Of a stretch of DNA of 64,000 nucleotides, positions 54,401-57,400 are shown one piece after another. Origin of the DNA: Escherichia coli (GTDB taxonomy: Bacteria; Pseudomonadota; Gammaproteobacteria; Enterobacterales; Enterobacteriaceae); NCBI RefSeq assembly GCF_045037415.1, contig NZ_CP173438.1. One strand, written 5' to 3'. The position numbers are program-made. Each line of letters starts with the position of its first letter. Position 1 is the first letter of the stretch.

Positions 54401-57400
54401 GTGTTCGTCGCCGCCTGGGCGTTATGGCTGCGGGTCGCTCAGTACGGCTGGACTGTCGACCGCTTGCAGGGCGCGCTGGCGGTGCTGGTGTTACTGGTAT
54501 GGTCGCTGGGGTATTTTGTCAGTATCGTCTGGCGTAAAGGGCAAAATCCCCTTGATCTTCAGGGCAAAGTGAACCTTGCGGTTTCGTTATTGGTGTTGGT
54601 AATACTGGTGCTTCTTAATTCGCCGGTGCTGGACAGTATGCGCATTAGCGTGAACAGTCATATGGCGCGTTATCAGAGCGGTAAAAACACGCCAGACCAG
54701 GTAACTATCTACATGCTCGAACAGAGCGGTCGCTATGGACGTGCGGCGCTTGAGTCGCTGAAAAGCGATGCCGAGTATATGAAAGACCCGAAACGCGCGC
54801 GGGATCTGCTGATGGCGTTAGATGGAGAGCAACATCTTCAGGAACAGGTATCGGAAAAAGTATTAGCCGATAATGTGTTAATTGCCCCAGGTTCTGGTAA
54901 ACCGGATGCGACATTCTGGTCGGCCTTAATCCAGGATCGCTATAACGTGATGACCTGTATTGAAAAAGACGCCTGCGTACTGGTCGAGCAAGATCTGAAT
55001 AGTGATGGTCAGGCGGAGCGGATCCTGTTTGCTTTTAATGATGACAGAGTCATTGTCTATGGCTTTGACTCAGCCAGAAAAGAATGGGACGCGCTTGATA
55101 TGAGTTTACTTCCGCGCAAAATAACGAAAGAAAAATTACTCACAGCTGCGAAGGATGGAAAACTGGGGACGAGGCCGAAAGCGTGGCGCGATCTGACGGT
55201 AGATGGTGAAACGCTGGAAATAAACTTAAGTAAGTGACAACGCTTTTAACGGATACGACGCTGTATCTGACCAAAATAACTTGCGATTTATCCGGTGCGC
55301 GGTAAAACCCCGTCCTTCAGGGCGGGGATATAAGTTCGCCATCCATTTCAACCCGTTCAGCTTCAAAATCAGCACATACATTTGAAAAGTAAGTGCGTAG
55401 TTTTTCTGTCGCGTCATGGTCAAAAATCTGGCGTTGGTATTTGGCGACAAAGACCAGGTGAACATGCATCAGGAAAACACAATGCCTTCCACGCCGGATA
55501 TCGGTTTCTTTTTTCATAGACCAAAATATAATTTGACCTGTGAAACGACTACAGGCATTTAAATTCCAGTTAAGACCCGGTGGTCAACAGGAGCGTGAAA
55601 TGAGGCGCTTCGCAGGCGCATGTCGTTTCGTTTTCAATCGTGCTCTGGCGCTTCAGAATGAGAATCATGAGGCCGGTAATAAATACATCCCTTACGGGAA
55701 AATGGCTTCCTGGCTGGTTGAGTGGAAAAATGCCACTGAAACGCAATGGCTTAAAGATTCTCCCTCACAGCCATTGCAACAGTCACTGAAAGACCTTGAG
55801 CGGGCTTACAAAAACTTCTTCCAGAAGCGGGCTGCTTTTCCCCGATTCAAAAAGCGGGGACAGAATGATGCATTCCGCTACCCGCAGGGCGTTAAGCTCG
55901 ATCAGGAAAACAGCCGTATTTTTCTGCCGAAACTTGGTTGGATGCGCTACCGGAATAGCCGTCAGGTCACGGGAGTTGTGAAAAATGTCACTGTCAGCCA
56001 GTCCTGCGGTAAGTGGTACATCAGTATTCAGACAGAAAGTGAAGTATCAACTCCGGTTCACCCTTCAGCATCAATGGTCGGGCTGGATGCTGGCGTGGCT
56101 AAACTCGCCACGCTGTCAGATGGCACAGTCTTTGAGCCTGTAAACAGTTTTCAGAAAAACCAGAAGACGCTGGCGAGACTTCAGCGACAGTTAAGCCGCA
56201 AGGTCAAATTCAGCAACAACTGGCAGAAGCAGAAACGCAAAATACAGCGGCTGCATTCCTGTATCGCAAATATCCGCAGGGACTACCTTCACAAAGTCAC
56301 AACGACCGTCAGCAAAAACCACGCAATGATAGTCATTGAGGATTTGAAGGTCAGCAACATGTCAAAGTCAGCAGCGGGTACGGTCAGCCAGCCGGGGCGC
56401 AATGTCCGGGCAAAATCAGGTTTAAACCGTTCGATACTGGATCAGGGCTGGTATGAAATGCGCCGCCAGCTTGAGCACAAGCAGCTCTGGAGTGGCGGTC
56501 AGGTGCTTGCTGTTCCGCCAGCGTACACAAGCCAGCGTTGCGCGTGCTGTGGTCATACAGCGAAAGAAAACCGCCTGTCACAAAGTAAATTCAGATGCCA
56601 GGTATGTGGATATACAGCGAACGCCGATGTAAATGGCGCTCGTAACATTTTAGCGGCGGGGCACGCCGTTCTTGCCTGTGGAGAGATGGTGCAGTCAGGC
56701 CGCCCGTTGAAGCAGGAACCCACCGAAATGATTCAGGCGACAGCCTGAACGTAGCAGGGATCCACGTCCTTCAGGGCGTGGAGGATGTCAATTCATAGGC
56801 CTGGTAAGCGCAGCGCATCAGGCCATTACGTCGTAAAATCCGGCAGAGTCCTCTCTGCCGGACATACTCATTAATGAACTTGCGGATCTGCCGGAGACGC
56901 GTTGTTGCGGATCTCGGCAATATCCATCGCATTGAACAGATAGTGGTTACCGCAGTAATCACAATGCATGTCAATTTCGCCATCTTCCGCCAGGATGCTA
57001 TCGACTTCTTCATCAGGCAGCGTTTTCAGCGCATCGGCGCAACGTTCACGCGAGCAGGTGCATTTGAACTCCACATCCTGCGGATCGTAAACCGTCACCT
57101 CTTCTTCGTGATACAAACGCCACAACACTTCGTTTGCCGGTAAAGTCAGCAGTTCTTCGGTTTTGATGGTTTCGGTTAGCGTCGCCAGGTGGTCAAAGTC
57201 GTCCTGCTGGGCATTTTGCGCAGGCATTACCTGCAACAACATACCGCCTGCAGCCGGTTTGCCGTCTACGTCGCCGGTGCGAATAAACAGGCGCGTCGGC
57301 AGCTGTTCAGAACGCATAAAGTAATCTTCCAGGCAGGCCGCCAGGGTATCACCTTCCAGACCAACCACGCCCTGATAGCGTTCGCCTTCGCTCGGGGTGA

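Follow-up and report, generated by a model that had tools for sequence, protein, structure and literature searches.

The DNA analysed here (the window, 64,000 nucleotides) comes from Escherichia coli and carries, in this order, pckA (minus strand), yhgE (plus), an insertion element, and hslO, hslR, yrfG and igaA (all minus). ST131 chromosomes such as SA186 match a 3.5-kb stretch across the element with 100% identity, and a 1.7-kb stretch containing it is 100% identical to other chromosomes (e.g. SK1144, O25b:H4). Alignment against two empty yhgE–hslO sites, one of the EC11 type (L002) and one of the K-12 type (L003), places the borders of the element at 55292–56791 (plus strand; 1500 bp). The borders of 55300–56790 given in the initial annotation were right to within a few bases, and these coordinates replace them. 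The alignment of the EC11-type empty site shows ...GCGATTTAT running without a break into TTCATAGG..., and the longer right side reads TTCATAGGCCTGG. In the occupied site, TTTAT is joined to the element, whose last bases are ...GGAGGATGTCAA, and the terminal TCAA is joined to TTCATAGG. The comparison with empty sites reveals neither a target-site duplication nor terminal inverted repeats, and it identifies TTTAT at 55287–55291 (plus strand), host DNA directly 5′ of the left end, as the target and presumptive transposon-adjacent motif (TAM). Empty sites of the K-12 type lack about 70 bp here, the target itself included. Of 5426 complete E. coli genomes, 549 have the occupied yhgE–hslO site, and most of these are ST131; the flanks are joined in the remainder.

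The insertion point is located 54 bp past the yhgE stop codon and 79 bp past that of hslO (56871–56873). Between the hslO stop codon and the insertion point, outside the element, lies the hslO terminator hairpin at 56839–56862 on the minus strand (DNA fold −12.8 kcal/mol, z −7.0); ATTTT comes after it on that strand. The insertion had been described as lying 80 bp upstream of this terminator; it is instead 47 bp beyond the hairpin, downstream of the hslO stop. An effect on hslO, which the initial annotation had included among possible effects on the flanking genes, is unlikely because the insertion lies beyond the terminator and yhgE and hslO are convergent. A consensus scan found no sigma-70 promoter on the plus strand. 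The sequence TATAAT was seen by eye at 55521–55526, where a good −35 is missing. Transcription of tnpB by read-through from yhgE is conceivable.

Over the shared 1500 bp, the element has 97.5–98.5% nucleotide identity to 1748-bp E. coli elements, which align with it as two pieces and whose TnpA is named “IS200/IS605-like element IS609 family transposase” in RefSeq. By the RefSeq names of these near-identical full-length copies, the element is IS609, a member of the IS200/IS605 family, minus 248 bp, which bears out the family originally assigned and makes it more exact. RefSeq labels the identical ST131 DNA “transposase, incomplete, missing C-terminus” and “insQ: RNA-guided endonuclease InsQ/TnpB family protein”; the locus is therefore already correctly labelled, and both the element type and the tnpA-less state are already well described. 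DNA matching the element occurs in 5015 of the 5426 genomes, and 4866 genomes hold an element. The loci of full-length copies vary and include ydcL/ydcO (K-12), yeaR/yeaQ, the inside of a TetR-family gene (O157:H7) and the inside of a DUF3251 gene. Elements of this kind have been reported in more than 90% of E. coli genomes (PMC9956272).

The tnpA remnant and the transposon ends

Full-length TnpA has 143 residues, with the HuH motif at H69-V70-H71 and a C-terminal helix, APISAIRQY135IEQQ, that carries the predicted catalytic Tyr135. The window retains a remnant of 66 aa on the minus strand (55317–55517), in which 55335–55517 hold the codons for TnpA residues 6–66; five unrelated codons follow, and the stop codon lies inside the hairpin of the left end (LE). 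The last native residues are ...VEMDGE66, and TnpA has been deleted from P67 onward, with the loss of the HuH histidines (H69 and H71) and of the C-terminal helix. The claim that tnpA is truncated before the HuH motif was exact. Alignment with L005–L008 places the deletion junction ATATAAG/TTCGCC at 55334–55335, where 248 bp of full-length IS609 are missing; the sequence bordering the missing segment reads ...GGGGATATAAG on the left and TTCGCCATCC... on the right. The remnant matches the NCBIfam profile transpos_IS200 over positions 2–54 of 126 only (44 bits against a cut-off of 55), and full-length relatives score 145.7 bits on the IS200 transposase profile. The homology of the remnant to TnpA is clear, and the gene is non-functional. 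Contiguous matches to the 81-nt sequence across the junction all map, among those listed, to about 356 kb, where SK1144 has its yhgE–hslO copy, and AVS0285 has the identical junction at the identical site. The 673 genomes returned at 80% or more by the junction search are not an exact count of the deletion derivative, because the search merges the halves of full-length copies into one place.

The LE (55292–55334, plus strand) contains the tetranucleotide AAAA (55304–55307) and a hairpin (55308–55327), CCCCGTCC-TTCA-GGGCGGGG, which forms an 8-bp stem in the DNA fold. It differs from the full-length copies L005, L007 and L008 at one base (55300), and the right end (RE) is identical to those of L005 and L006. 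The RE hairpin occupies 56761–56782, and the terminal TCAA (56788–56791) lies 10 nt past its foot. The two hairpins have a common loop and a nearly equal stem, and are on one strand. Their palindrome core, CGTCCTTCAGGGCG, occurs exactly twice in the 64 kb, at 55311–55324 and 56765–56778, again on one strand; this count alone is not significant, as at least two matches were obtained in 11 of 100 shuffles when two mismatches were allowed. An inverted-repeat finder run with its default seed gave no output; the stems are 8–9 bp long and were confirmed by folding. Both hairpins can be regarded as real because dozens of related elements have them at their ends too, and the similar palindromes noticed earlier at the two ends are thus upheld by folding and by conservation in related loci.

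Related loci, 45 in number and drawn from Enterobacterales and other groups, lose all similarity directly past GGAGGATGTCAA in 44 cases; the remaining one (L076) reads GGAGGATTTTAA. At the opposite border, the left flanks of 23 related insertions read TTTAT (13), TTTAC (five), CTTAT (two), CTTAC, ATTAT and TTGAC (one each), so that TTAY is present in 22 of 23. The motif at the left border of the window element is TTTAT, within the family consensus TTAY, and not the TTAC-like motif that had been anticipated. IS608 follows a rule by which a DNA guide on the 5′ side of the LE hairpin corresponds to the cleavage or target motif. The tetranucleotide 5′ of the LE hairpin likewise co-varies with the flank in the relatives of the window element: AAAG is found with TTAC in L052, L019, L022, L041 and L012, CAAG with TGAC in L055, and AAAA with TTAT, as in the window. 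Three loci depart from this pattern: L011 combines AAAA with TTAC, and L048 and L027 combine AAAC with TTAT. Given this IS608-type covariation, the window LE (AAAA, with TTTAT) and RE (TCAA) are predicted by analogy to be bona fide TnpA substrates.

TnpB and the predicted omega RNA

The tnpB gene (insQ; 55540–56748, plus strand) is an open reading frame of 402 aa with a GTG start. Its product matches NCBIfam guided_TnpB (NF040570) with 381 bits against a cut-off of 100 and contains the Pfam domains HTH_OrfB_IS605, OrfB_IS605 and Cas12f1-like_TNB. In the alignment with ISDra2 TnpB (8exa/8h1j; E 1.6e-53), D183, E267 and D363 pair with D191, E278 and D361, and both CxxC pairs of the zinc finger (C334, C337, C353 and C356) align as well. 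None of these seven catalytic and zinc-finger residues varies among 33 relatives. The 402-aa TnpB with RuvC motifs and a zinc finger that was recorded initially is full length, with its triad and four cysteines intact, and a check for inactivating substitutions among the RuvC catalytic residues found none. The sole departure from the consensus at the level of at least 90% is Y313H. This position is Tyr in 31 of the 33 relatives and also in ISDra2 (Y309, LEYKA), where the paper on mutational scanning of ISDra2 TnpB makes no mention of it. A second substitution, R318S, affects a position that is Arg in 27 of the 33. Judged from its sequence, TnpB is potentially an active nuclease, and this activity is unproven because Y313H falls at a strongly conserved position. 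In one study, an “IS609” TnpB was purified among nine candidates (PMC12781874).

The dN/dS of tnpB relative to full-length copies is 0.2–0.3, a value that says little on selection at the window copy because it mostly reflects the history before insertion. The 30 top-listed ST131 genomes all retain the reading frame unaltered, which could result from recent clonal descent or from some retained use. A sister lineage, represented by AVS0285 and AVS0971, shares the insertion site and the deletion junction and keeps Y313 and R318; its tnpB has a 1-bp deletion at 55554, by which the first 20 TnpB residues are lost. Y313H and R318S arose in the window lineage. Two independent lesions of tnpB after the common loss of tnpA suggest relaxed constraint, although so few cases are no proof of it.

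The predicted omega RNA scaffold (56622–56791, plus strand) begins within the 3′ part of tnpB and extends through the RE, so that the RE hairpin and the terminal TCAA belong to it. An RNAalifold consensus of 34 sequences has 45 pairs in nine helices over approximately 56622–56788, and 16 of these pairs show compensatory changes. Pairing was found in 96.3% of cells, compared with 39–48% when the partners were slid, and the observed values were reached in none of 500 shuffles. The signal comes from this comparative analysis only, the single-sequence RNA fold of the right end being uninformative (z −1.6). Conservation of structure at the right end is what an omega RNA scaffold would lead one to expect. 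The omega RNA that had been placed at about 56600–56790 thus corresponds to a conserved structure with covariation in the last ~170 nt, and the RNA itself is a prediction. The region differs from the K-12 copy by one base. All Rfam matches fall below the gathering threshold (HgcC, 23.6 against 50 bits; sot0042, 17.0 against 88; RAGATH-18, 25.4 against 44.9), and the resemblance centres on the terminal hairpin together with GGAGGAUGUCA and on a CCUGUGGAG...GAAGCAGGAA motif. Much of the predicted omega RNA lies inside the tnpB reading frame; such an overlap is usual for omega RNAs.

The 16 nt directly 3′ of the right end, TTCATAGGCCTGGTAA (56792–56807, plus strand), belong to the REP-like host flank and are, by their position, the predicted guide template. 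By analogy with ISDra2 (PMC8612924, PMC10278001), the guide is predicted to be this sequence and the TAM to be TTTAT. The two are contiguous in empty sites. The 40-nt target of the empty site is single copy and is present at 80% or more in 1725 of the 5426 genomes, and the 64-kb window contains no second close match to it. Self-targeting by the REP-derived guide was considered and rejected, as the target is single copy and is preceded in occupied genomes by TCAA, which is not a TAM.

Proposed history of the copy

We propose, with a probability of roughly 0.9, that an IS609 copy inserted at yhgE–hslO and subsequently lost the catalytic part of TnpA while keeping TnpB and the guide template, and that it is likely a decaying relic. 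On this view, the ancestor that ST131 shares with a few related lineages acquired the “peel-and-paste” element on the 3′ side of TTTAT, and a later loss of 248 bp removed the catalytic part of the Y1 HuH transposase, after which excision or transposition by the copy on its own would not be possible. Given transcription of the copy, TnpB would generate an omega RNA with the guide TTCATAGGCCTGGTAA from the 3′ end of its own transcript, and the complex would cut the empty allele, TTTAT-TTCATAGGCCTGGTAA. This is the “homing and retention” role that has been described for TnpB, and the mechanism is taken from the literature (Karvelis 2021, PMC8612924; Meers 2023 preprint, PMC10055086; Nety 2023, PMC10278001). 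Without TnpA, no empty site would arise in the same cell and the nuclease would have no routine substrate, and for this reason a slowly decaying relic is the most likely state of the element.

The distribution of other IS609 DNA bears on whether the copy could still move. A 245-bp query from the missing tnpA segment was present at 80% or more in 4328 genomes, which matches the approximately 4317 genomes obtained when the 549 occupied ones are subtracted from the 4866 that hold an element. Each of 30 ST131 accessions with the window element at 100% identity has exactly two IS609 places, so the count of copies elsewhere in the genome that was proposed initially yields one further place. It is a relic between ybcM and yedK, consisting of a 174-aa reading frame with a HuH motif, in which the tyrosine helix has been replaced by unrelated sequence, and 290 bp of tnpB; neither end is present. 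No functional IS609 TnpA was found in these 30 genomes, which were checked individually, the others being judged through the counts. Because the only other IS609 DNA in the 30 genomes is a relic without the tyrosine helix, the window copy is immobile by itself there. The initial view that the element is probably immobile holds for such autonomous movement but not for movement in trans: since both ends are intact, an IS609 TnpA provided from elsewhere (for example WP_000604943.1) should still be able to mobilise the copy.

One alternative is that the element is non-autonomous yet mobile, being excised and re-inserted when a full-length copy on the chromosome or a plasmid entering the cell provides TnpA, with TnpB guarding the donor site. 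Its ends, one base from full-length copies at the LE and identical to L005 and L006 at the RE, are suited to this, and other species contain relatives that have no tnpA and whose LE adjoins tnpB (L012, L066, L045 and L072). About three quarters of tnpB genes have no tnpA nearby, and their mobilisation is believed to occur in trans, tnpA-less tnpB copies being the majority of the family (PMC10055086). However, the contiguous matches to the deletion junction that are listed are at the yhgE–hslO position only. Although IS609 DNA is present at 554 places on E. coli plasmids, the tnpA segment is present at only 43, and the 30 ST131 genomes provide no functional enzyme. Overall, we consider continuing mobility in trans rather unlikely.

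Retention of TnpB for a use of its own must also be weighed against the decaying relic. In one form, TnpB and the omega RNA would act in ST131 as a locus-specific homing nuclease that cuts an incoming empty yhgE–hslO allele (TTTAT plus TTCATAGGCCTGGTAA), a role that we consider quite improbable. If it were true, recombination would be biased to the occupied allele, or incoming DNA would be restricted; roughly one in three complete E. coli genomes carries the uninterrupted allele. In a broader form, TnpB would be domesticated, its nuclease and guide retained to serve a new function, for instance gene regulation or the restriction of incoming DNA with the empty allele. The open reading frame with intact catalytic residues, the omega RNA region one base from the K-12 copy, the fixation of the locus in a successful clone and the intact target in 1725 of 5426 genomes are compatible with this. 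On the other hand, recent clonal descent accounts for the identity within ST131, tnpB is frameshifted in the sister lineage, and Y313H in the window lineage lies at a near-invariant site. Furthermore, the transposon ends are kept, the guide is set by the insertion site, and, unlike in TldR (PMC10705468), there is neither loss of RuvC residues nor a link to a regulated host gene. Domestication is accordingly very improbable. Finally, the idea that tnpA is merely frameshifted or mis-called, and could be restored to give an autonomous element, has next to no probability and was rejected: a full-length tnpA is unrecoverable by frameshift correction because the cause is a deletion, the alignment with full-length copies showing the 248 bp from P67 to the stop codon to be physically absent and the remnant covering profile positions 2–54 of 126 only.

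The copy is a natural and precisely dated case of “TnpB without TnpA”, fixed in the pandemic ST131 clone. The sister lineage inactivated tnpB differently, and the pair could be used to estimate the decay rate of an orphaned RNA-guided nuclease; the predicted TAM (TTTAT) and guide make the question of decay directly testable. Beyond correct annotation, the importance of the locus is little.

Comparison with known systems

The window copy shares with full-length IS609 copies the LE, the RE, a TTAT-type target, divergent tnpA and tnpB and a 402-aa TnpB. It differs from them in the missing 248 bp (TnpA residues 67–143), in Y313H and R318S of TnpB, and in its locus, yhgE–hslO. IS608 of Helicobacter pylori is the reference for the peel-and-paste mechanism. 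Both elements have subterminal hairpins on one strand and an RE whose terminal TCAA comes 10 nt past the foot of its hairpin; both insert 3′ of a TTAC/TTAT-type motif without duplication, with an LE tetranucleotide that co-varies with the target. In IS608, however, tnpA and tnpB are co-directional and the target is TTAC, whereas the window element is divergent, like IS605/IS606, and has TTTAT as its target; the IS608 side of this comparison is drawn in part from PMC10055086.

The tnpB-only elements of the IS200/IS605 family, for example the approximately 50 copies in Geobacillus stearothermophilus (PMC10055086), have ends, tnpB and an omega RNA but no working transposase, as in the window. The window element differs from them in its visible recent deletion of tnpA, which left a 61-codon stub, and in that the genomes checked are without a cognate TnpA. 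ISDra2 TnpB and the window TnpB are alike in domain order, in the D-E-D triad and in the CxxC...CxxC finger, and the window element, as ISDra2, is predicted to have a structured RNA over the end of tnpB and the RE that is followed by a guide derived from the flank; the TAM is TTGAT in ISDra2 and is predicted to be TTTAT here. In contrast, the domesticated, nuclease-dead TldR has lost the RuvC residues and the transposon ends and has a guide aimed at a host promoter, whereas in the window element the triad and both ends are intact and the predicted guide is the flank of the insertion.

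Recurrent loss of the transposase gene

The IS609 copies of K-12 (L006) and ST2747 (L005) are otherwise full-length, but the annotation lists their tnpA (674-1099 and 664-1089, respectively) as a pseudogene, interrupted by an internal stop. Within E. coli, the transposase has thus been lost repeatedly while tnpB was kept. Outside this species, in Citrobacter amalonaticus, Photorhabdus, a Zetaproteobacteria MAG and Thorsellia, the transposon left end lies immediately 5' of tnpB and tnpA is wholly absent (L012 1419-1498, L066 1375-1502, L045 1344-1428 and L072 1444-1495). These four loci are independent tnpB-only derivatives of the element family to which the window IS609 belongs.

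The interval between the gene starts and a second relic

Between the tnpA start and the tnpB start, the window copy carries TATAAT at 55521-55526 and TTGACC at 55527-55532. At the equivalent positions, the full-length copies L005, L007 and L008 have TATCAT followed by TTGGCC or TTGGTC; the K-12 copy also has TATCAT, yet shares TTGACC with the window copy. We also compared the window copy with that of AVS0285 (L077), a sister lineage that shares the insertion. The flanks of the two are near-identical. In all, 21 differences separate the two lineages, and 15 of them are clustered in 125 bp (window 55445-55568) around the starts of tnpA and tnpB.

A second IS609 relic is located outside the window, between ybcM and yedK in ST131-type genomes (L009 2833-3670). 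In the annotation, its 174-aa open reading frame is an "IS200/IS605 family transposase" and counts as intact, but the C-terminal tyrosine helix has been replaced by unrelated sequence; 3' of this frame, tnpB is reduced to 290 bp, and both the left and the right transposon ends are absent from the relic. The annotation of a complete gene is probably misleading. The relic agrees at 6 of the 15 clustered differences, and this match in sequence hints at gene conversion between the yhgE-hslO and ybcM-yedK relics. The remaining clustered differences are unique and include one 3-bp and one 1-bp deletion.

Insertion site, right flank and a motif in the predicted omega RNA

The guide would come from the right flank, where window 56795-56830 forms a REP-like palindromic unit, GGCCTGGTAAGCGCAGCGCATCAGGCC; the stretches compared with it in the empty sites are 995-1030 of the EC11-type site (L002) and 940-960 of the K-12-type site (L003). 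K-12-type genomes lack approximately 70 bp at the insertion site, including the TTTAT target, and thus E. coli is polymorphic for the very site of insertion.

Within the predicted omega RNA, the CCUGUGGAG...GUUGAAGCAGGAA motif (window 56675-56718) is near-invariant across the family. This motif matches both ends of Rfam RAGATH-18, with a sub-threshold score of 25.4 bits, and RAGATH-18 may in turn represent a fragment of the omega RNAs of TnpB.
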